A stretch of 64,000 nucleotides of DNA, taken from positions 14,384,001 through 14,448,000 of the forward strand of contig OZ024746.1 of NCBI GenBank assembly GCA_964016885.1, given 5' to 3'. Position 1 is the first letter of the stretch, and each line of letters opens with the position of its first letter. Position numbers and translations under genes: made by a program. The notes under the pieces were generated by a model. That model had not been told where the DNA came from. It did no database searches and saw nothing but the letters and a program-made list of their open reading frames with translations. This stretch comes from Eledone cirrhosa (lineage: Eukaryota). Below, piece by piece: positions 17,968-42,374 of the stretch.

Positions 17968-18065
17968 ATTGTTTCTACTTTTTGGCACAAGGCCAGCAAT
18001 TACCCAGTGCATTACTGGTACTTTATTTTATCGACCCCGTAAGGATGAAAGGCAAAGTTAACCTC
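17968..18065 (-). mobile_element. tRNA-derived SINE 3' half
   Basis: Matches the family's central domain and tail; flanked by repeated ATATATAATTTTAATT. Confidence 0.85.
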
Positions 18066-18179
18066 ATATATAATTTTAATTAGGGGTTATCATTAGCCAT
18101 CCGCATATCTCGCTTATCTGCTTTTAGCCACTATCTGACCTTTTGCTCCGAGACCAGCTTTTATGTCCCTATTCTACAC

Positions 18180-18337
18180 TCTGCAAATATCGGGCGCTCT
18201 CCGACAGGTTTGAGGTCGAGCCCGTAGCAGTGATGACTTCTGGTGTCCTTGGCCCTAGGTCCACCTTCCTACTTAACACCATCGGAGCTGAGTTGGATAC
18301 CCTCACAAGTGGCTCGATTTCTCCCTGGCTCGTGTGA
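18180..18337 (+). pseudogene. CRE-like RLE C-terminal relic
   Basis: CKYRALSDRFEVEPVAVMTSGVLGPRSTFLLNTIGAELDTLTSG resembles the KY..L..F.P.AVET.G..GP motif that follows the RLE. Confidence 0.6.
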
Positions 18338-18344
18338 TTTTAGA

Positions 18345-19019
18345 TGATTGACAAATGCAGCTCTTAATAGAAGAAATTGGCCACATGCATTGCACCTGAA
18401 TTTCTGGTGGGGTTTTGCAGGCACTGTTCCACTCGCTTTTTCTCGAAGACCTCACATCCATATATGATGATCATTCTCCATGATGTACGACCTTCATCCA
18501 ATGTCTCCCAGTTCTCCATATCAATATTCAGGACTGTAAGATTGCCTGTCTTTTATACCATCCCTAACCTGCTTCTTTGATTTATGCTGTGGTTTTTGTC
18601 CTCTGGTCAGCTCCCCATAAAATAACTGTTTAGGCAGCCTTCCATCTTCCATCCTGACCACATGACCAGCCTAACACATCTAGCTCATAATAACCCTCCT
18701 CCCAATACTGGTTCTTCCCGCTGTTTTAAGTACAGCAGCATCAGGTGTGTTAGAGGACTACTTGATATTCAGGAGGCGTCGGATACAATGCTGATGAAAT
18801 ATTTCCAGTTGCCTGGTGTAATGCCTCTAAGTTGTTCACGTTTCGCATCCAAATAGCAGAGCTGCAAGAATACAGGCCTCATACACAAAGAGCTTTGTGT
18901 TTCACGCGATACTATGATCTAACCAAACTCGCTTCCCGAAGGCAAGACTGGTTTTCACAATCCTGTGATCAATTTCTGTAAGGAGGGTGTCATCTCTACT
19001 AAGTGTACAAAGCTGTCCA
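18345..19019 (-). pseudogene. RTE-clade LINE RT C-terminal relic
   Basis: Minus fragments [57 protein letters not shown] and GHVVRMEDGRLPKQLFYGEL are typical of RTE/BovB. Confidence 0.85.
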
Positions 19020-19088: not shown

Positions 19089-19699
19089 ATGCTGGCTGCC
19101 AACTCGTCTTCGAGTACGGCCACTACTTTATATCCATGTAGGAGAACCCCTACCGATGCGCTGAACAAGTGTGACTTTTTAGTCCAGCCAGCGACTTGAA
19201 AACTCTGGTACAAACACTACACTTGTGACAATTATTGACACATAGTGCTGGGCCCATGGTACCATATGACGACAAGTACAGAGAGATCTCCAGATATAAA
19301 GCAATGCCTGTGTCGTGAAGCTTTTATAGTGAGCAAAGGCACTGCACAAAGCCAGTCCCACTCTCTTAACCAAGATGATATTTACCAAAAAAAAAGAACA
19401 AGTCAACATCATTGGATACCATCAGAGTTGCAGGTGTTATATCAGAGTTTTCCTTCTTCTAGAATTCTGCCTTGACAAAGGCTAAGGGGTCATCTCTCCC
19501 GGTGATTTTGGATGGCCATTGACTCTTAAGAGCTCCTTTTCCCTTTGACTGGTTTTGTTTTTAGTCCTGCAGAATGTCCAAAGTCACCCTCCTCACCAAG
19601 AAACCTTGGTGGGGTTGCCAGTTTAGTCGCCAACGACCCGACCATGAGACAGGTTGTACTGGAATACATGTTACCAGTAGCACCGACTGGTGACCTGAC
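19089..19699 (-). mobile_element. Non-coding RTE-derived retroelement in (TACA)n, copy 1 (~610 bp)
   Basis: Tandem near-identical copies; minus strand CCTTAGCCTTTGTCAAGGCAGAATTCTAGAAGAAGGAAA resembles the RTE 5'UTR motif; fixed end GGCAGCCA.CAT(GTAT)n. Confidence 0.8.
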
Positions 19700-19751
19700 A
19701 TACATACATACATACATACATACATACATACATACATACATACATACATAC

Positions 19752-20360
19752 ATGGTGGCTGCCAACTCGTTTTCGAGTACGGCCACTACTTTATATCCAT
19801 GTAGGAGAACCCCTACCGATGCGCTGAACGAGTGTGACTTTTTAGTCCAGCCAGCGACTTGAAAACTCTGGTACAAACACTACACTTGTGACAATTATTG
19901 ACACATAGTGCTGGGCCCATGGTACCATATGACGACAAGTACAGAGAGATCTCCAGATATAAAGCAATGCCTGTGCCGTGAAGCTTTTATAGTGAGCAAA
20001 GGCACTGCACAAAGCCAGTCCCACTCTCTTAACCAAGATGATATTTACCAAAAAGAAGAACAAGTCAACATTATTGGATACCATCAGAGTTGCAGGTGTT
20101 ATATCAGAGTTTTCCTTCTTCTAGAATTCTGCCTTGACAAAGGCTAAGGGGTCATCTCTCCCGGTGATTTTGGATGGCCATTGACTCTTAAGAGCTCCTT
20201 TTCCTTTTGACTGGTTTTGTTTTAGTCCTGCAGGATGTCCAAAGTCACCCTCCTCACCAAGAAACCTTGGTGGGGTTGCCAGTGTAGTCGCCAACGACCC
20301 GACCATGAGACAGGTTGTACTGGAATACATGTTACCAGTAGCACCAACTGGTGACCTGAC
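19752..20360 (-). mobile_element. Same element, copy 2
   Basis: Near-identical to copy 1 with the same two ends. Confidence 0.85.
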
Positions 20361-20440
20361 ATACATACATACATACATACATACATACATACATACATAC
20401 ATACATACATACATACATACATACATACATACATACATAC

Positions 20441-20894
20441 ATGGTGGCTGCCAACTCATTTTCGAGTACGGCCACTACTTTATATCCATGTAGGAGAACC
20501 CCTACCGATGCGCTGAACGAGTGTGACTCTTTAGTCCAGCCAGCGACTTGAAAACTCTGGTACAAACACTACACTTGTGACAATTATTGACACATAGTGC
20601 TGGGCCCATGGTACCATGTGACGACAAGTGCAGAGAGATCTCCAAATATAAAGCAATGCCTGTGCCGTGAAGCTTTTATAGTGAGCAAAGGCATTGCACA
20701 AAGCCAGTCCCACTCTCTTAACCAAGATGATATTTACCAAAAAAAAGAACAAGTCAACATCATTGGATACCATCAGGGTTGCAGGTGTTATATCAGAGTT
20801 TTCCTTCTCCTAGAATTCTGCTTTGACAAAGGCTAAGGGGTCATCTCTCCCGGTGATTTTGGATGGCCATTGACTCTTAAGAGCTCCTTTGCCC
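20441..20894 (-). mobile_element. Same element, copy 3 (5'-truncated)
   Basis: Same left end; stops at GAGCTCCTTTGCCC. Confidence 0.85.
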
Positions 20895-20945
20895 TACATA
20901 CATACATACATACATACATACATACATACATACATACATACATAC

Positions 20946-21392
20946 ATGGTGGCTGCCAACTCGTTTTCGAGTACGGCCACTACTTTATATCCATGTAGGA
21001 GAACTCCTACCCATGCGCTGAACAAGTGTGACTTTTTAGTCCGGCCAGCGACTTGAAAACTCTGGTACAAACATTACACTTGTGACAATTATTGACACAT
21101 AGTGCTGGGCCCATGGTACCATGTGACAACAAGTGCAGGGAGATCTCCAGATATAAAGCAATGCCTGTGCCGTGAAGCTTTTATAGTAAGCAAAGGCACT
21201 GCACAAAGCCAGTCCCACTCTCTTAACCAAGATGATATTTACCAAAAAGAAAGAACAAGTCAACATCATTGGATACCATCAGAGTTGCAGGTGTTATATC
21301 AGAGTTTTCCTTCTAGAATTCTGCCTTGACAAAGGCTAAGGGGTCATCTCTCCCGGTGATTTTGGATGGCCATTGACTCTTAAGAGCTCCTT
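20946..21392 (-). mobile_element. Same element, copy 4 (5'-truncated)
   Basis: Same left end; stops at GAGCTCCTT. Confidence 0.85.
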
Positions 21393-22166
21393 ATATATAT
21401 ACATATATATATATACATACATACATATACACACATACACATATACATACATATACATACATATATATATATACATACACATACATATACATACATATAC
21501 ATACATATATATATATATACATACACATACATATATACATATATATATATACATACACATACATATATACATACATATATATATACATACATATACATAC
21601 ATATATATATACATACATATACATACATATACATATACATACATATACATACATATATATATATACATACATATATATATATATATACATACATATATAT
21701 ATATATATACATACATATATACATACATAAATATATATATACATACATACATATATACATACATACATATATACATACATATATACATACATACATACAT
21801 ATATACATACATATATATATACATACATACATATATACATACATACATACATACATACATACATACATACATACATACACATATACATACATACATACAT
21901 ACATATATACATACATACATATATATATACATACATACATATATATATACATACATATATATATACATACATAAATATATACATATATATATACATACAT
22001 ACATATATACATATATACATACATACATACATATATATATATACATACATACATACATATATATACATACATACATATATACATACATACACACATACAT
22101 ACATACATATATACATACATACATATATACATACATATATACATACATACATACATATATATATAT

Positions 22167-22199
<33 letters not shown>

Positions 22200-22773
22200 T
22201 ATGTACATACATACATATATACATATATATATATGTACATACATACATATATACATATATATATATGTACATACATACATATATACATATATATATATGT
22301 ACATACATACATATATATATATGTACATACATACATATATATATACATATATATATATGTACATACATACATATATATATACATATATATATATGCACAT
22401 ACATACATATATATATATACATACATACATATATATATACATATATATATATGTACATACATACATATACACATACATATATATATATGTACATACATAC
22501 ATATATATATATACATACATATATACATATACATATATATATATATATACATATATATATATGTACATACATACATATATATATATATACATACATACAT
22601 ACACATATATATACACACACATACACGTACACACATACATATATATACATACATATATATCTACATACATACATATATATATATATACATACATATATAT
22701 GTACATACATACATATATATATATATACATACATATATATACATATACATACATATATATACATACATACATA

Positions 22774-22805
<32 letters not shown>

Positions 22806-22927
22806 CATACATATATATACATACATATATATGTACATACATACATACATATACATACATACATATATATACATACATACATATATATATATACATACAT
22901 ATATATGTACATACATACATATATATG

Positions 22928-22963
<36 letters not shown>

Positions 22964-23096
22964 TATACATACATATATATGTACATACATACATATATAT
23001 GTACATACATACATATATATATATACATACATACATATATATATATACATACATATATATATATATATATACATACATACATACACATGTACATAC

Positions 23097-23131
<35 letters not shown>

Positions 23132-23182
23132 AACATACATATATATACATACATATATACATACATATATATATATACATAC

Positions 23183-23215
<33 letters not shown>

Positions 23216-23260
23216 CATACATATATATATATACATACATATATACATACATATATACAT

Positions 23261-23313
<53 letters not shown>

Positions 23314-24166
23314 CATGCATATACATATATATATATACATACATATATATATATACATACATATATATATACATATATACATACACATATATACATATAC
23401 ATACATACACATATACATATATACATATACATATACATATATATATATATACATATATGTACATACATACATATACATACATATATATATATACATACAT
23501 ATATATACATATATACATATATGCACATACATACATATACATACATATATATATACACATACATATATATACACACATACATATATATATATACATACAT
23601 ATATATGTACATACATACATATATATATACATACACATACACATATATACACATATATATACACATACATATATGTACATACATACATATATATATATAC
23701 ATACACACATATACATACATACATATATATATATACATATATATATATGTACATACATACACATGTACATACATATATATGTACATACATACATATATAT
23801 ATATACATACATATATATGTACATACATACATACATATATATACATACACACATATATATATACATACATACACATATATATATATATACACACACACAT
23901 ATATATATATACATACATACATATATATACATACATACATATATATACATACATACATATATATACATACATACATACACATACATATATACACATACAT
24001 ATATATACATACATACATACACATACATATATATACATACATACATACACACACATATATACACATACCTACATATATATACATACATACATATATACAC
24101 ATACATATATATATATACATATATATATATATACATACATATATACACATACATATATATATATAC

Positions 24167-24197
<31 letters not shown>

Positions 24198-24254
24198 CAT
24201 ACATACATATATATATACATACATACATATATATATACATACATATATATATAC
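21393..24254. repeat. Complex (TA/CA)n alternating pyrimidine-purine tract, ~2.9 kb
   Basis: Directly visible; source of the spurious Y/I/H/T and M/Y/V/C ORFs. Confidence 0.97.
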
Positions 24255-24850
24255 ATGGTGGCTGCCAACTCGTTTTCGAGTACGGCCACTACTTTATAAC
24301 CATGTAGGAGAACCCCTACCGATACGCTGAACGAGTGTGACTTTTTAGTCCAGCCAGCAACTTGAAAACTCTGGTACAAACACTACACTTGTGACAATTA
24401 TTGACACATAGTGCTGGGCCCATGGTACCATGTAATGACAAGTGCAGAGAGATCTCCAGATACAAAGCAATGCCTGTGCCGTGAAGCTTTTATAGTGAGC
24501 AAAGGCACTGCACAAAGCCAGTCCCACTCTCTTAACCAAGATGATATTTACCAAAAAGAAGAACAAGTCAACATCATTGGATACCATCAGGGTTGCAGTT
24601 GTTATATCAGAGTTTTCCTTCTCCTAGAATTCTGCCTTGACAAAGGCTAAGGGGTCATCTCTCCCGGTGATTTTGGATGGCCATTGACTCTTAAGAGCTC
24701 CTTTGCCCTTTGACAGGTTTTGTTTTTAGTCCTGCAGGATGTCCAAAGTCACCCTCCTCACCAAGAAACCTTAGTGGGGTTGCCAGTTTAGTCGCCAACG
24801 ACCCGACCATGAGACAGGTTGTACTGGGATACATGTTACCAGTAGCACCA
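24255..24850 (-). mobile_element. Same element, copy 5 (nearly full length)
   Basis: Same left end; stops at GTAGCACCA. Confidence 0.85.
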
Positions 24851-25097
24851 TACATATACATACATACATATATATATACATACATATACATATACATACA
24901 TACATATATACATACATACATATACATATATATACACATACATATACATACATACATACACATATATATACATACATATATATACATATACATACATACA
25001 TATATATATATACATATACATATATATATATATACATATATATATATACACATACATACATACACACATATACACACACATATATATACATACATAC

Positions 25098-25132
<35 letters not shown>

Positions 25133-25455
25133 CATACATACATATACATACATACATATATATATATACATATATATATATACATACATATATATATACA
25201 TATATATATATATATACATACATATATATATACATATATATATATATATACATACATATATATATTACATATATATACATAATATATATATATTATACAA
25301 TATATATACATACATACATATATATATACATATATACATATATACATATATATACATACATACATATATACATATATACATATATATACATACATACATA
25401 TATATACATATACATATATATATATATAATATACATACATATAGTATATACATAC

Positions 25456-25486
<31 letters not shown>

Positions 25487-25583
25487 CATACATACATACA
25501 CACACATACATATATATATATATATACATACATACATATACATATATACATACATACATATATACATATACATACATACACAC

Positions 25584-25624
<41 letters not shown>

Positions 25625-25732
25625 CATACATATAAACATATACATATATATACATATATATATACATACATACATATACATACATACATACATACATATA
25701 TACATATACATATATATATATATATATATACA

Positions 25733-25763
<31 letters not shown>

Positions 25764-25906
25764 ATATATATATACATACATATATACATACACATATATA
25801 CATACATATATACATACATATATATATATACAATATACATACATACATATATATACAACTATACATACATACATATATATATACACACATACACATACAT
25901 ATATAC

Positions 25907-25937
<31 letters not shown>

Positions 25938-26630
25938 CATATATATATACACACATATATATACACATACACACATATATATACATACATATATATATAC
26001 ATATATATATATACATATATATATACATACATATATATATATACATATATATACACACACATATACATACACATATATATATATACATATATATATATAC
26101 ATATATATATATACATACATATATATACATATATATATATACATATATATACACATATATACATATACATATATACATATACATATATATATATACACAT
26201 ATATATATATACATATACATATATATATATATACATATATATACATACATATACATATATATATATATATATACATACACATATATACATATACATACAC
26301 ATATATATACACATATATATACATATATATATACATATATATATATATATACACACACATATACATATATATATATATACACACATATATATACACACAT
26401 ATACATACATATATATATACACATACACATATATATACATATATATATACATATATATATATATACATATATACACACATATATATACATATATATATAT
26501 ACATATATATATATACATATATACATACACACATACATACATATATATATACATACATACACATACATACATACATACACACATATACATACATATATAC
26601 ATATACATACATATATACATACATATATAC

Positions 26631-26668
<38 letters not shown>

Positions 26669-26778
26669 ACATACATATATATATACATATATACATATAC
26701 ACACATATATATACATACATACATATATACATATACATATACATACATACATATATATATACACATATATATATATAC

Positions 26779-26825
<47 letters not shown>

Positions 26826-27612
26826 CATATATATATACATATATATATACATATATACACATATACATACATATATATATACATATATATATACATACAT
26901 ATATATATATACATACATATATATATACATACATATACATACACACACACACACACATACATATACATACACACACATATACATACACACATACATATAC
27001 ATACATACATATATATACATACATATACATACATACATATATATACATACATACATATATATATATATATACATACATATATATACACACATATACATAC
27101 ATATATATATATATATACATACACATATATATATATATACATACACATATATATATATATACATACATATATATATACATATACATATACACACATATAT
27201 ATATACATATATATATATACATATACATATACACATATATATACATATATTTATACATATATATATACATACATATATATATACATACATATTACATACA
27301 TATATACATACATACATATATATATACACACATATACATATACATACATACACATATATATACATACATATATATATACATACATACATATATATATACA
27401 TACATACATATATATACATACATATACATATACATACATACATATATATATACACACATACATATATATATACATACATACATATACATATATACATACA
27501 TACATATACATATATACATACATATACATACATACATACATATACATATATACATATATACATACATATATATACATACATACATATACATATATACATA
27601 CATATACATACA

Positions 27613-27641
<29 letters not shown>
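24851..27641. repeat. Complex (TA/CA)n tract, ~2.8 kb
   Basis: Directly visible. Confidence 0.97.
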
Positions 27642-27643
<2 letters not shown>

Positions 27644-35771: not shown

Positions 35772-35996
35772 ATTAGAAAGTGAGGGTTTTTTTACAAAAT
35801 GAAAAATAACTGAGGTGTCCTACACGAGTATAAGGAAAAAAGATGAAATCGAAAATGCAACTGGAGTCTTTTTTTTTTTAATATATATTCATTTGGTTCC
35901 TTTACCGGTTTCGCAGTTCTTCTGCTTTTCAAAAGTAGGATTGAGATGGAGGGTTTGTGGTTTGTCTCACATCTGAGAAAAACCACAAACCCTCCA

Positions 35997-36001
<5 letters not shown>
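35772..36001 (-). mobile_element. Short element between (TA)n tracts ending in a 60-bp hairpin
   Basis: Hairpin TGAGATGGAGGGTTTGTGGTTTGTCTCA/TGAGAAAAACCACAAACCCTCCATCTCA (35942-36001); variant bulged stem-loop at 35809-35830. Confidence 0.6.
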
Positions 36002-36054
<53 letters not shown>

Positions 36055-36212
36055 GAATACATAGATACGTACGTACATATAAACATGAATGCATACATAC
36101 GTATTTACATACATACATACATGCATACATACATACATACATACATACATACATACATACATACATACATACATACATACATACATACATACATACATAC
36201 ATACATACATAC

Positions 36213-37183
36213 ATTGAGCAAGTCTGCTGCATGAGAGAGATAAGAGTTGTGAAGGAACTCCTTGAAAGATATTCCCTGCATGATAATCAAAAGCTCACAC
36301 CCAGGGAAACTGCCCAGCATTACCGCAGTGAATCCATGAATGAAAAACTGCTTATCACCAAAAGATCATGCATGGATATATTGCCAGTAAGCTCCTGAGT
36401 GAGAGTAATATAGATAAACAAAGTAGTCTATCTTGGACCAATAACTGCTATATTGGCTTATACTTTGGGAGGATACACTTTTGCAATCCAAGAACAAGAA
36501 ATCAACACAAAATATCTGATTCACAAAACAGATAGGGGTGCAGGCAAAACACCTAGATGTGACAACGAGTGCAGACTCTGCAGAATTAACATCGAAGATG
36601 TCACTCATGTCATAAGCAACTATCCAAAGATGTCATCAAGGTACTATCTACTTATGAGGCATGATGTAGTAGCCAAAACACTGTAGAAAAGATAGCCCGA
36701 CAATAAACACATTAAAAGCTATAGCAATGGGGAGGACATACACATACATAATATGAAAGAGTACTGGTGGAATGTTCCAGTAAAAATCCCAATAAAATGC
36801 AGGCATAACAGACCAGATATTATGATATGGGACAGGGAAAAGAAGGCATGCACAGTAGTGGAAGTTAGCTACCCAGCAGATGCCAATATATCAAAGATTA
36901 ATGGAACAGTAAAAATATGTAAAACATTCCAAAAATTCTGCATCTAATAACTGCATTACACATGTACAGATACACAGCCTATACACATCCACACATATAA
37001 CTTAAAACATACACATCCACACATACAATAACATCCATACCTGCACACACATGCATGCAGACATGCATACATATCTACCTAGTTGATGTTGTGTAGATTC
37101 CAATAAAAGAGTCTTGTATCTATGTTAGAAACCGACTCTCTCTCTATTGGAAAAAAATTTGTGAAATTATAAAACCAGAAGAA
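36213..37183 (+). mobile_element. R4/Dong-like non-LTR retrotransposon, family B, 5'-truncated and decayed
   Basis: GYTFAIQEQEINTKYL..CRLC..EDVTHVIS..MRHD and YWWN..HNRPDIMIWD..VVEVSYP; stops and an internal deletion; both ends in (TACA)n. Confidence 0.9.
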
Positions 37184-37322
37184 CATACATACATACATAC
37201 ATACATACATACATACATACATACATACATACATACATACATACATACATACAAACATACATACATACATACATACATACATACATACATACATACATAC
37301 ATACATACATACATACATACAT

Positions 37323-38649
37323 ACAATACTTATGCTGTGCCAATTCTAACGACAATACTTATGCTGTGCCAATTCTAACGACAATACTTATGCTGTGCCA
37401 ATTCTAACGCCAACATTTGGCCTACTGAACTGGTCATTGCAAGAACTAAGTGAGATGGATGTTAGAACTCGAAAACTTCTCAGTCTTACTGGGAACTTTA
37501 ACATCAATGGTGATGTGGATAGGCTATACTTCTCACGCAAGGAAGGTGACCGGGGTCTAAAATCAATATTAACAACATATGAGACCCGGATAGTGACACT
37601 GAAGCAACACCTTCAACAGATGAAAAAGGTTGGCAACCATCTTGCCCAGGTTTATGACCATGAAAAAAGAAATATCATTAGAATAGCGACTGATCTGGAG
37701 GAGAGATATGGAATAAAGCCTGATATAAATCTCTCACCCAGAGAAATCGGAAGATCCTATTCAATGTTCAAACAAGATAAAAAAATTGACCAATTTACAG
37801 AAAAAGTTGTGCATGGATACTTGAGGCGTAAAACACAGACCATAGAGGGGATAAACCACTCAAAAAGCCTGGCATGGAGTTCCGACAAGTTTATGACATC
37901 ACACCTTGAGGGATATCTCTATGCAATACAGGAACAAGAACTCCCTACCAAATATCTGCTGCACAAAAGAGGAGGGCCAGCAGCTGACAATAAATGTAGA
38001 CTATGTAAAACAAAGATCGAGGATGTAAGCCACATTGTTGCCAGCTGCGAAAGAATGTCATCTCGCTACTACCTCCCCATGAGACACAATGGGATAGCTA
38101 GAACCATCTGGAACGCACTTCGGAAAACAAAATTAACAACAAACGAGGAAGAATATATTGAGACAGATGGCACTAAGGAATACTGGTGGAACCTGAAAAT
38201 AAAAACTGCCACCAAATTAAAGCACAACCGGTCTGATATTGTAGTTTGGGACCACACATTGAAAACGTGTTCTGTTGAGGAGATCAGCTGCCCACTTGAT
38301 GTAAACGTTGTCAGAAAAATACAGGAGAAGGAGGACATCTACGGACCATTGATGAGGAGTTTACAAATCCAGTATCCAAGATACACCTTTAGCTTCATAC
38401 CCATCATTATTGGTGCTACGGGTTATATACCAACCCGCTTGGACCAAAGTATGACTAAACTTGGATTTGTGGACAAAAAGCGCAGCTCCCTAATTCATAG
38501 TCTACAAATCGCTGCGATAGCTGGCACCTTCAAAATTTGCAAAACATTCTTGCGATTCAAGGGATGACAATTTCTTTTCTTTTACAACCTTGCCACCAGG
38601 AAGGTGGCCGGTCAAAAAAATATACTCAAAATTAAGAGAAAGAGAAAAC
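37323..38649 (+). mobile_element. R4/Dong-like element, family A, 5'-truncated copy (ORF remnant 37395-38567)
   Basis: Near-identical to 40581-41849; CCHC knuckle and RLE (here RSD instead of RPD); flanked by (TACA)n. Confidence 0.93.
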
Positions 38650-38686
38650 ATACATACATACATACATACATACATACATACATACA

Positions 38687-39094
38687 TAACATTATTTATG
38701 CCTGTGATTATTGGGGCACTGGGATATGTTAGTAACTGCCTCAGTACAAATCTTGAGAAGCTAGGCTTCACAGGAACAGATAGAACACAACTAGTTAGGA
38801 AACTACAAGTACAATCCATTAATGGAACAGTAAAAATATGTAAAACATTCCAAAAATTGTGCATCTAATAACTGCATATACACATGTACAGATACAAAGC
38901 ATATACACATGCACAGATACAACTCAAAACATCCACATCCACACATACAATAACATCGATATCTACACATGCATGCATACATATCTACCTAGTTGATGTT
39001 GTGTAAATTCCAATGAGAGAGTCTTGTGTCTATGTTAGAAACCGACTCTCTCTCTCTATTGGTAAAACTTTGTGAAATTATAAAACCAGAAGAA
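38687..39094 (+). mobile_element. R4/Dong-like family B, short 3' fragment
   Basis: FMPVIIGALGYV...INGTVKICKTFQKLCI* plus a 3'UTR matching 36900-37183; in (TACA)n. Confidence 0.9.
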
Positions 39095-39180
39095 CATACA
39101 TACATACATACATACATACATACATACATACATACATACATACATACATACATACATACATACATACATACATACATACA

Positions 39181-41767
39181 AACTTTGAACTCCAAATTAC
39201 ACCAGTTGAAACAACAACTCACAGCTACAACAGAAAGACTAAAATATAAGTCAACAGCCCATAAACGACAAGTGCTAAATAGATTGTTTGCCAGAGATCC
39301 TAAATCAGTTTATCGCAGCTTCGGTGGCAAAAGCTCAATCCCTGTAAACGACACCCCTTCAAAAGAACAGGTTGAGAACTACTGGAGATCTGTATGGGAA
39401 ACGGATGACGGATTCAACAGACAAGCTAATTGGCTAAAACAACTGGAACAGGACTACTGCCAACATGTCCAGACAAAACAATATGACATAGATGGGTCAA
39501 TACTGGAAACAGCTCTACAGAAAATGTCGAATAGGAAATCGCCAGGCCCAGACCTCATTACAGGATACTGGTTGAAGAATTTCACTTTCTATCGGCAAGA
39601 TCTCATACGGCTGTTTACAGAAACCATTAAGGGCACACAAGAACTGCCCAGATGGTTATCAACTGCCACTACTCTCCTCATTCCCAAAAATAGCCAAACC
39701 ACCCTTGCTAAAAATTACCGCCCAATTGCCTGCCAAAACATCATGTATAAATTATATACTGGGTGCCTTAACCTGTTCTTACAGGATCACTGTGCTACCA
39801 ACAACATCATAACACCTGAGCAAGCTGGTGGAAAGAGGGAGGTGTGGGGTTGCATAGATCACCTACTAACTAACAAAATGATTCAGGAAAAAACAACAAA
39901 GAATCGCAGAAACATGACTGTCGTGTGGCTGGACTATCAAAAAGCATTTGATAGTGTACCTCATGGGTGGATTATTAAGGCTTTACAGTTAGCTAAAGTC
40001 CCACAACCATTAGTAGCTGCTGTTGAACGCCTGACCAAGAACTGGTACACCAATTTGATCCTTAGAGGTGAGAAGGAGCAGGTTAAGACTGATAGGATAC
40101 ATTACCAGAAGGGCATCTTTCAGGGTGATAGCTTGTCAGTACTACTCTTCGTTCTCTCACTGAATCCACTATCTTACCTACTCAGGAAACAAGGTGGACA
40201 AAGAAGTGGGCCCAGAAGTATCTCCCATCTTTTCTTTGTTGATGACCTGAAGTTGTATGGGCCAAATATCAATGACATCAAGAAACAATTGGACCTCATT
40301 ACACAATTTTCAACCGACATCAAAATGAAATTTGGTGAGTCCAAGTGTGCATATTTGGCAGTAAAACGTGGAAGAGCTGTGCCCTCCTCTAGAAATCTAG
40401 AGATGAACGGCCTGACAATACAACCTCTGCAGTCAGGTGACAACTACAGATATCTTGGACAGGATGAGAATGTCAGATATGATGGACCCATAAATAAGGA
40501 GAGAACCAGAACTGAATACCTCAGAAGAGTTAAAAAAATATGGTCATCAGAACTGTCAGCATACAACAAATACATTGCCCACAATACCTATGCTGTGCCA
40601 ATTCTAACGCCAACATTTGGCCTACTGAACTGGTCATTGCAAGAACTAAGTGAGATGGATGTTAGAACTCGAAAACTTCTCAGTGTTACTGGGAACTTTA
40701 ACATCAATGGTGATGTGGATAGGCTATACTTCTCACGCAAGGAAGGTGGCCGGGGTCTAAAATCAATATTAACAACATATGAGACCCGGATAGTAACACT
40801 GAAGCAACACCTTCAACAGAGGAAAAAGGTTGGCGACCATCTTGCTCAGGTTTATGAGCATGAAAAAAGAAATATCATTAGAATAGCGACTGATCTGGAG
40901 GAGAGATATGGAATAAAGCCTGATATAAATCTCTCACCCAGAGAAATCGGAAGATCCTATTCAATGTTCAAACAAGAAAAAGAAATTGACCAATTTACAG
41001 AGAAAGTTGTGCATGGATACTTGAGGCGTAAAACACAGACCATAGAGGGGATAAACCACTCAAAAAGCCTGGCATGGAGTTCCGACAAGTTTATGACATC
41101 ACACCTTGAGGGATATCTCTATGCAATACAGGAACAAGAACTCCCTACCAAATATCTGCTGCACAAAAGAGGAGGGCCAGCAGCTGACAATAAATGTAGG
41201 CTATGTAAAACAAAGATCGAGGATGTAAGCCACATTGTTGCCAGCTGCGAAAGAATGTCATCTCGCTACTACCTCCCCATGAGACACAATGGGATAGATA
41301 GAACTATCTGGAACGCACTTCGGAAAACAAAATTAACAACAAACGAGGAAGAATATATTGAGACAGATGGCACTAAGGAATACTGGTGGAACCTGAAAAT
41401 AAAAACTGCCACCAAATTAAAGCACAACCGGCCTGATATTGTAGTTTGGGACCACACATTGAAAACGTGTTCTGTTGTGGAGATCAGCTGCCCACTTGAT
41501 GTAAACGTTGTCAGAAAAATACAGGAGAAGGAGGACATCTACGGACCATTGATGAGGAGCTTACAAATCCAGTATCCAAGATACACCTTTAGCTTCATAC
41601 CCATCATTATTGGTGCTACGGGTTATATACCAACCCGCTTGGACCAAAGTATGACCGAACTTGGATTTGCGGACAAAAAGCGCAGCTCCCTAATTCATAG
41701 TCTACAAATGGCTGCGATAGCTGGCACCTTCAAAATATGCAAAACATTCTTGCGATTCAAGGGATGA
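39181..41767 (+). CDS. Reverse transcriptase + CCHC zinc knuckle + PD-(D/E)xK restriction-like endonuclease (N-terminally truncated, no native start)
   Basis: Motifs KSPGPD, KNYRPIAC, WLDYQKAFDSVPH, KGIFQGDSLS, HLFFVDDLKL, YRYLG, RKEGGRGL, CRLC..HIVASC, RHN, RPDIVVWD..VVEISCP; no internal stops. Confidence 0.93.
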
Positions 41768-41849
41768 CAATTTCTTTTCTTTTACAACCTTGCCACCAGG
41801 AAGGTGGCCGGTCAAAAAAATATACTCGAAATTAAGAGAAAGAGAAAAC
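39181..41849 (+). mobile_element. R4/Dong-like non-LTR retrotransposon, family A, 5'-truncated, in (TACA)n
   Basis: Long open RT-RLE frame, ~80-bp 3'UTR ending AGAGAAAA directly into (CATA)n. Confidence 0.95.
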
Positions 41850-41901
41850 ATACATACATACATACATACATACATACATACATACATACATACATACATA
41901 C

Positions 41902-42185
41902 ATGATTGCTGCCCCCTCGTTATCGCACGATATACCATTATCAATAATTATTAATTAATTCTATCATGCAATGCCTGTGCGTGAAGATTTTTTTAAAGTG
42001 AGGAAAGAATGTGCACTGAGCCAACCCCACTCTCTGAGTGACAGTAGTTATAACCCGAAAAGAAGAAAAGATCAACATCATCGGTAACTACTGAGCCGCA
42101 GGTTTTATATCGGAGTTATTCCAGTCTCCTGAGTTGCCTTCTAGAAGAATGCTCTGACAAACGCTAGGGGTCCTTCACTCCCGAC
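41902..42185 (-). mobile_element. Diverged subfamily of the 19089-type RTE-derived element, truncated, in (TACA)n
   Basis: Shares GCAATGCCTGTGC.TGAAG, CCCACTCTCT, TCAACATCAT.GG, GCAGGT.TTATATC.GAGTT and TGACAAA.GCTA.GGGTC. Confidence 0.75.
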
Positions 42186-42374
42186 ATACATACATACATA
42201 CATACATACATACATACATACATACATACATACATACATACATACATACATACATACATACATACATACATACATACAAATAAATAAACAGAATCTCATT
42301 GTCTGAATATGGTGATTTGAAAACAAATCTTCAATAAAGTGGGACTGTGCTCGAAATTCCAAGACCCACCTATA

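Follow-up and report, generated by a model that had tools for sequence, protein, structure and literature searches.

Families A and B, whose copies are stacked in a (CATA)n array within the 64,000-nucleotide window of Eledone cirrhosa DNA analyzed here, are non-LTR retrotransposons with a single ORF and likely belong to the R4/Dong group. Their copies lie in (TACA)n in one orientation, very likely as a result of binding and nicking of the repeat by their own protein. Copies collected from the genome carried TACA at their 5′ flank far more often than random positions did, nearly all of their ends were on the CATA strand, and both flanks of family A copies derived from a single array.

Stacked insertions in one microsatellite

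Five insertions are stacked in the array: B1, A1, B2, A2, and a short element, C. The sequence-only reading had described four head-to-tail, plus-strand insertions in the order B, A, B, A, each truncated at a different 5′ point, and these were all recovered; its total was too low, since the fifth (41904 to 42184) had been missed. It had also called the array nested. Insertions are indeed stacked, but the copies sit in repeat linkers and none lies within the body of another, so the term is loose.

The left microsatellite (36000 to 36214), which is the 5′ flank of B1, passes from (TA)25 through degenerate repeat into pure (CATA)n. B1 (36215 to 37183, plus strand) is an old, 5′-truncated family B copy with a broken frame, 85 to 87% identical to the full-length copy L152 and missing about 190 bp internally. 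Beyond a (CATA)n linker of about 35 units (37184 to 37325) lies A1 (37326 to 38648, plus strand), a 5′-truncated copy from the older subfamily of A, 98.7 to 98.9% identical to copies L272, L280, and L268 and 98.1% identical to L064. A 29-bp unit occurs three times at its 5′ end (37323, 37352, and 37381), and its C-terminal frame (37350 to 38567) has RSD in place of RPD. A linker of about 10 units (38649 to 38688) leads to B2 (38689 to 39094, plus strand), which is short, comprises the endonuclease C-terminus and 3′ untranslated region (UTR), and is 95% identical to L152. The next linker, of about 21 units (39095 to 39180), precedes A2 (39181 to 41848, plus strand), the youngest copy, which is 99.7% identical to full-length L064 and lacks the first 1555 bases of the element. 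As had been proposed, A2 retains an open frame (39182 to 41767, 861 codons), and this was matched by RVT_1 (E 2.5e-25) and zf-RVT. Its reverse transcriptase (RT) domain spans about 39680 to 40435, CCHC begins at about 41195, the RPD..E..K endonuclease begins at about 41429, and the 3′ UTR occupies 41768 to 41848.

After a further linker of about 14 units (41849 to 41903), C (41904 to 42184) is a truncated, non-coding element with a family-fixed end at 41904 and a cut end at 42184; it is likely on the minus strand, as judged from which end is fixed and which is variable. A role for C and another short element, X, as plus-strand partners of A was considered and dropped, since the fixed end is on the left and the variable end on the right. 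The array closes with about 23 units of (CATA)n (42185 to 42278). This right flank was present without differences in runs X3 and X4, which do not constitute independent support.

The A copies are truncated at element positions 2956 and 1556 and the B copies at about 2917 and 3703. At their 3′ ends both families are purine rich, close in two to four A residues, and run directly into (CATA)n at a family-fixed point without a poly(A) tail, in agreement with the earlier description. The near-identity claimed for A1 and A2 was also borne out (23 differences in 1268 bases), and the two belong to different subfamilies. B1 and B2 are only 89% identical. Local tandem duplication was therefore ruled out as the source of the B-A-B-A order. 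Family B is older than A, and the B copies examined have broken frames, so that the suggestion of a young lineage holds for A and fails for B.

Flanking repeats and orientation of insertions

TACA flanked the 5′ end of 126 of 136 A copies (30 of 31 among the full-length copies), a fraction inflated because the copies counted were the best-matching ones and some were found as neighbors of other TACA-associated elements; the background rate was 1866 of 113,840 random positions (1.6%). CATA lay directly 3′ of 123 of the 136. The main outcome that the sequence-only reading had named as refuting it, a majority of copies with non-TACA 5′ flanks, did not arise. In a first set, picked by an internal query only, TACA was found at 16 of 17 visible junctions. 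Ten copies that appeared to be non-TACA insertions were rejected as such: their alignments break in a 5′ UTR variant, and TACA lies upstream in all 10. The 136-copy count was chained across these breaks (L307 is still broken), and the ten copies were left out of the target-site duplication test and of the shared-variant and 5′-end counts. Four A copies (L267, L319, L004, and one in L312) have no 5′ TACA at all, and the sole A copy met in random DNA (L165, 96.4%) has (TA)n as its 5′ flank. Orientation was strand specific, as predicted: the CATA strand carried 149 of 152 ends in family A and 69 of 71 in family B.

For A copies, the TATA content of the 5′ flank correlated with that of the 3′ flank (rho 0.56, n = 72, p 2.8e-7), and rarer locus-specific repeat variants were also common to both flanks. 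Because the two flanks share such variants, the repeat is a target rather than a tail, in line with the sequence-only reading. Several 3′ flanks depart from the CATA register after 2 to 4 bases, which makes a long templated tail unnecessary. Arrays on the 5′ side of A were longer than those on the 3′ side (medians of 81.5 and 35 bases for 94 and 35 copies, respectively; p 1.8e-5), and of 52 copies whose 5′ flank was pure, 7 had a 3′ run of at most 9 bases. Family B had a TACA flank in 36 of 51 copies and showed neither the flank correlation (n = 16, p 0.23) nor a 5′/3′ length asymmetry. No excess of target-site duplication was seen: a match spanning the junction was present at 12 of the 48 informative loci, compared with 12 to 14 in 5′-shifted control windows. 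In a search for an empty allele, in which repeats were skipped, none of the 15 matches listed bridged the array.

Family A protein and its relatives

The family A element is 4,223 bp long and has a single ORF of 1,169 amino acids with FVDD, CCHC, RH, and RPD..E..K motifs. Intact full-length copies, whose recovery the earlier reading had called for, were found, and the whole frame is kept in 25 of 148 scored matches. The order of domains, RT, then CCHC, then a PD..E/D..K-type restriction-like endonuclease (RLE), is that of R4/Dong elements, as are the repeated target and fixed orientation of both families. No APE domain was found in the A protein, which has the restriction-like motif at its C terminus instead. 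The A and B proteins are 53% identical and formed a separate, well-supported branch in a quick tree built without named references or an outgroup. Family A matched insect proteins at about 30% identity over the full length (E about 1e-150), and its match to R2 (E 1e-28) covered the RT only. By similarity and architecture, A and B thus likely belong to the R4/Dong group.

Dong of Bombyx mori, DongAg, DongBg, and Darwinula Dong1/2, of the R4 clade, have in common with A a single ORF with RT and RLE, the absence of an N-terminal zinc finger, a helical N-terminal domain, and insertion into microsatellites (PMC7998251, PMC3812793). For the clade, a divergent Myb/SANT-like N-terminal domain is reported (PMC7998251). 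The predicted model of the A protein (pLDDT 89) has three confident helices at residues 22 to 74, and a profile search found this domain in proteins of Bombyx (E 2.3e-9), Pediculus (2e-5), and Spodoptera. For the homologue P0001, the Atlas lead was Myb_Rap1 (score 0.85). The N-terminal region of A itself gave no Pfam or fold match, a single-sequence model of the domain alone (pLDDT 66) gave no meaningful fold match, and nothing indicated a zinc finger there, since Pfam had no N-terminal match and the alignment of this region lacks a conserved Cys/His pattern.

Differences from Dong were also apparent. Dong targets (TAA)n, and (TAA)n also terminates two distant relatives, the only loci obtained in a metagenome scan, whereas A and B are flanked by (TACA)n. 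The 5′ HDV-like ribozyme described for Bombyx Dong (PMC3774820) was not detected in A by Rfam at the 5′ end or by a simple pattern for the core motif, although such ribozymes are divergent; Rfam was likewise negative for X, returning only repeat-driven noise. R2 elements (R2Bm and R2Tg) are the closest solved structures by both sequence and fold and share the RT-CCHC-RLE core, but they are only 16 to 19% identical to A, target 28S rDNA, and have N-terminal zinc fingers that A lacks.

Recently active Dong-R4 elements (5 families, 1129 insertions) have been reported in Octopus vulgaris (PMC13282606), and a Dong consensus with a full ORF has been reported in O. bimaculoides (PMC9115989). As far as the accessible portions of these accounts go, no target site is named, and the word "target" does not occur in the main text of PMC13282606. 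Family A may be one of the octopus families or a close relative. Waldo elements (WaldoAg1, WaldoAg2, and WaldoFs1) target ACAY microsatellites, which include ACAT/TACA (PMC3812793); they are insect elements with an APE-type endonuclease, placed in the R1 clade by the title of a cited paper. Since that enzyme is unrelated to that of A, a common target would be convergent.

Proposed insertion mechanism and alternatives

By analogy with R2 and R4, a full-length copy would be transcribed from a fixed 5′ start, and the protein would bind its own 3′ UTR. The endonuclease would then nick the TGTA strand, leaving a primer ending in ...TATG, give or take one base because the last A may belong to either side. 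Reverse transcription primed by the target would proceed from the RNA 3′ end and often halt early. The longer 5′ arrays of A suggest that recognition would require a long upstream repeat and only about 4 to 8 bases downstream, possibly through the N-terminal three-helix domain. Each insertion would leave TACA on both sides; the site would therefore remain a target, and the five copies would have accumulated one by one.

Targeting might instead be driven by base pairing, with a loose endonuclease acting on alternating pyrimidine-A DNA and priming occurring only where the end of a read-through (CAUA)n RNA pairs with the nicked strand. The nearly fixed 3′ junction register, the tolerance of degenerate TA/CA-mixed arrays as target, and the lack of poly(A), which makes read-through into the downstream repeat plausible, are in keeping with this idea. 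We nevertheless consider it unlikely, given that the CATA match is just 2 to 4 bases in some 3′ flanks and that the longer 5′ arrays are left unexplained. It is more improbable still that the elements make the repeats, by adding a 3′ tail and writing 5′ TACA through RT slippage, with the flanks then overstating targeting. The 5′ arrays are long and often pure, and some arrays likely originated as tails, since (ATGT)n forms the end of the short elements X, C, and D and of an old RTE-like family. However, locus-specific variants occur on both sides of A copies, and of six TACA arrays met in 400 kb of randomly chosen DNA, four had none of these elements adjoining, although a genuine target could still be extended by slippage.

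Microsatellites are recombination-prone, tolerated sites. Random insertion, with survival or recombinational spread only in TACA arrays and tandem duplication of the local array, could draw on this and on the rearranged look of a few 5′ junctions, yet it is the least likely of the three and is already largely refuted. Among 88 truncated copies there are 83 distinct 5′ ends, so these are separate events; the TACA pattern is already present in copies 99.5 to 100% identical to each other; selection would fix neither polarity nor register; and neither A1 and A2 nor B1 and B2 are duplicates.

Targeted insertion by the element's own protein is thus the reading we favor. More tentatively, and with considerable doubt about the whole, A could be a currently active RLE retrotransposon that reads at least 40 bases of (TACA)n upstream of the nick and has a promoter-like fixed end without a ribozyme, while the (ATGT)n tails left by RTE-type elements and by the short partners of these would provide, on the opposite strand, the landing sites for two deeply diverged Dong-type lineages. 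If this self-feeding scheme is true, a compact enzyme for target-primed reverse transcription (TPRT) with a tetranucleotide target would have been reached independently of the APE-type Waldo.

Microsatellite targeting (Dong, TAA), the presence of the clade in octopods, and the ACAY repeat as a target (Waldo) are already known separately. In the papers searched, we found no RLE element with TACA as its target; for a group already recognized as inserting into TAA repeats, (TACA)n is likely a new target. To our knowledge, how RLE retrotransposons change targets is little understood beyond R2, and the sequence search turned up no relative of solved structure nearer than R2. With at least 25 near-identical whole-frame copies, a 5′ end that is defined, and a simple target, family A lends itself directly to tests of nicking, TPRT, and domain swaps with a TAA-targeting Dong. 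Short-read insertion callers may overlook Dong activity within repeats, and family A helps to account for the trains of microsatellite-linked elements in this large genome.

Five inserts in one (CATA)n array

The window lies at C6:14384001-14448000 of a 3.0-Gb genome, and positions 36000-42278 contain five inserts parted by six (CATA)n runs. The feature is real. The four alternating insertions of the sequence-only reading, which belong to the single-ORF R4/Dong-like families B and A, are all present on the plus strand (B1, 36215-37183; A1, 37326-38648; B2, 38689-39094; A2, 39181-41848), but the total is five, with a short element, C (41904-42184, likely minus strand), added. A2 has an open frame of 861 codons with RVT_1 and zf-RVT; that its frame is uninterrupted had been read from the sequence. 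Between A1 and A2 there are 23 differences over 1268 bases, which agrees with the scattered substitutions described earlier.

Local duplication was considered as the source of the array and ruled out. A2 is 99.6% identical to one A subfamily, A1 is nearer a different one (98.7-98.9%), and B1 and B2 are only 89% identical; because of this subfamily split and divergence, the alternation is read as five separate events. Identity to reference copies suggests that B1 is the oldest insert and A2 the youngest.

At the 5′ junction of A1 (37323-37409), a 29-bp element-derived unit occurs three times, the pattern expected from repeated template re-engagement. A comparable short repeat was seen at the 5′ end of another fetched locus, L309. 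Immediately left of the array is a 58-bp near-perfect inverted repeat (35943-36000), which belongs to a high-copy repeat, judged by run depth.

Full-length copies and relationships of families A and B

Two internal DNA queries for A returned 909 and 1165 candidates, which are lower bounds and not copy numbers, with 40 candidates scored per query, all matching at 100%. A protein search gave 148 scored matches, 25 of them with a 1174-codon stop-to-stop frame. The full-length A copy that had been sought was recovered: it is 4,223 bp long, with a single ORF of 1169 amino acids that is whole in 9 of the 13 full-length copies fetched. Full-length B is about 4.1 kb, and its frame was whole in none of 19 fetched copies (longest, 598 amino acids). 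A is present end to end in contigs from four public sequencing runs (three studies). As 5′ truncation would produce, its read depth climbs toward the 3′ end, most clearly in runs X3 and X7.

Full-length A copies share the start ATGGCGACC, and the bases just before it are TACA, TACAT, or TAAA-like. An older A subfamily has a variant 5′ UTR with the start AAAATGGCG, which would fit a YY1-type site. The 632-bp A 5′ UTR (4607-5238 of L064, a full-length copy) is AT-rich, has an apparent internal duplicated block, and opens with two short hairpins loosely resembling the B 5′ end.

The A protein carries FVDD, a CCHC knuckle, RH, and RPD..E..K motifs; its model (pLDDT 89) best matches R2 and next L1 ORF2. 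A and B proteins are 53% identical. In a quick tree of 65 selected rows, built without a named reference, both fell inside a 24-row branch with SH-aLRT 100, whose proteins are mostly unnamed; insect proteins lay outside it. In this tree the sister of A was not B but an Argonauta hians protein, the nearest named one (63%), which makes an octopod host likely, at the level of the group. A is likely a member of the R4/Dong clade. Two 76%-identical fragments were also found, one B-like (L006) and one A-like (L178, C2:70000001-70010000, positions 996-1317); the latter also ends in (CATA)n and suggests a further, older TACA-linked family.

Flanking microsatellites: target or tail

If TACA were only a tail, most 5′ flanks should lack it. 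Among 136 A copies with both junctions visible, the 5′ flank matched TACA over 24 bases in 126, and 3 more had two or three units. As background, 40 stretches of 10 kb were taken at even intervals, and 1.6% of their positions pass the same test. The remaining seven comprise one alignment break, one degenerate TACA/TA array, four copies without TACA, and A1, which was scored non-TACA and has TACA beyond its 29-bp repeats. At the other end, CATA followed in 123 of 136 copies. The proposed strand specificity was borne out: the CATA strand carries the ends of A in 149 of 152 cases and those of B in 69 of 71.

The A sample is skewed to young, intact copies and takes in neighbors of other TACA-linked elements; in the cleanest subset, TACA stood at 16 of 17 junctions. 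The sole A copy met in random DNA had a (TA)n flank, and four of six arrays met there had none of these families alongside. Target-site duplication was looked for and not established; an empty allele was likewise looked for and not seen.

The TATA contents of the 5′ and 3′ flanks of A correlate (rho 0.56, n = 72, p = 2.8e-7), and TAAA, ATGC, and ACGT variants are likewise common to both flanks of a locus. Such shared locus quirks are the strongest evidence for a pre-existing target. Because flanks share these variants and some 3′ flanks drop out of CATA register within 2-4 bases, A is concluded to split a pre-existing array, contributing a few templated bases at most. The targeting proposal thus holds for A, as judged from junction sequences; it is weaker for B, in which TACA stood at 36 of 51 5′ junctions, part of the shortfall coming from older copies that are rearranged, and in which the two flanks showed no correlation.

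A arrays are longer on the 5′ side (median, 81.5 versus 35 bases; p = 1.8e-5). R2 recognizes its target upstream of the nick, and the A protein may similarly read the repeat there, although slippage at the 5′ junction could also lengthen these arrays. For upstream recognition, a three-helix domain in the model (residues 22-74) is a candidate repeat reader. The N-terminal domain profile matches Bombyx, Pediculus, and Spodoptera proteins, and R4/Dong elements are described as having a divergent Myb/SANT-like domain in an alignment that includes those species (PMC7998251). Fold comparisons of the A domain itself gave no clear match.

Possible array sources and known systems

The fifth insert, C, is one of a large group of short elements, X, C, and D (2470, 4075, and 1770 candidates), which have a fixed left and a variable right end and therefore likely lie on the minus strand, ending in a hairpin and (ATGT)n. 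In this orientation, the ends facing the TATG strand number 113 of 126 for X and 23 of 28 for D; A and B face the other way. An old family of the genome, RTE-like in appearance by its motifs, has a similar end (weak alignment). In one locus (L224), a B copy sits straight in a tail of this kind. Such tails may seed target arrays for A and B. Bipartite elements derived from RTE are known (PMC5786205).

In the window, an old LINE fragment of RTE-like appearance (18100-19019, minus strand) adjoins a TACA array; its relatives are 75-84% identical, many ending in ...GTAGCAATC plus (ATGT)n or (AT)n. Five copies of an approximately 605-bp X element (19091-21392 and 24257-24850; 95-98% alike, likely minus strand) include four stacked with (CATA)n between them and one within a long degenerate array; two copies are truncated. 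They tolerate broader TA/CA arrays than A does, and a 6.2-kb degenerate TA/TACA array (21392-27643) immediately follows the train. A stretch of about 66 bp (18000-18066) is an abundant short repeat with at least 10 further window copies on both strands (651-63965).

Insects, molluscs, cnidarians, and an ostracod carry Dong elements that target (TAA)n (PMC3812793, PMC7998251), whereas A targets (TACA)n. Waldo, which targets ACAY repeats (PMC3812793), has an APE endonuclease, whereas A has the restriction-like RPD..E..K motif. Distant metagenome relatives (L324, 4650-4986; L325, 4650-5298) end in (TAA)n, and a further truncated copy comes next, as is classical for Dong; they make a useful control. 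Recently active Dong-R4 families are described in Octopus vulgaris, with no target given in the text examined or supplement (PMC13282606), and a Dong consensus in Octopus bimaculoides (PMC9115989). TACA, CATA, or ACAT as the target of a restriction-like-endonuclease element was not found among the papers listed by literature searches. A strict definition of Dong by its TAA target leaves A out, although from its sequence A appears to work in the manner of Dong. Its target is probably a new one for a kind of element, the microsatellite-targeting retrotransposon, that is already known.
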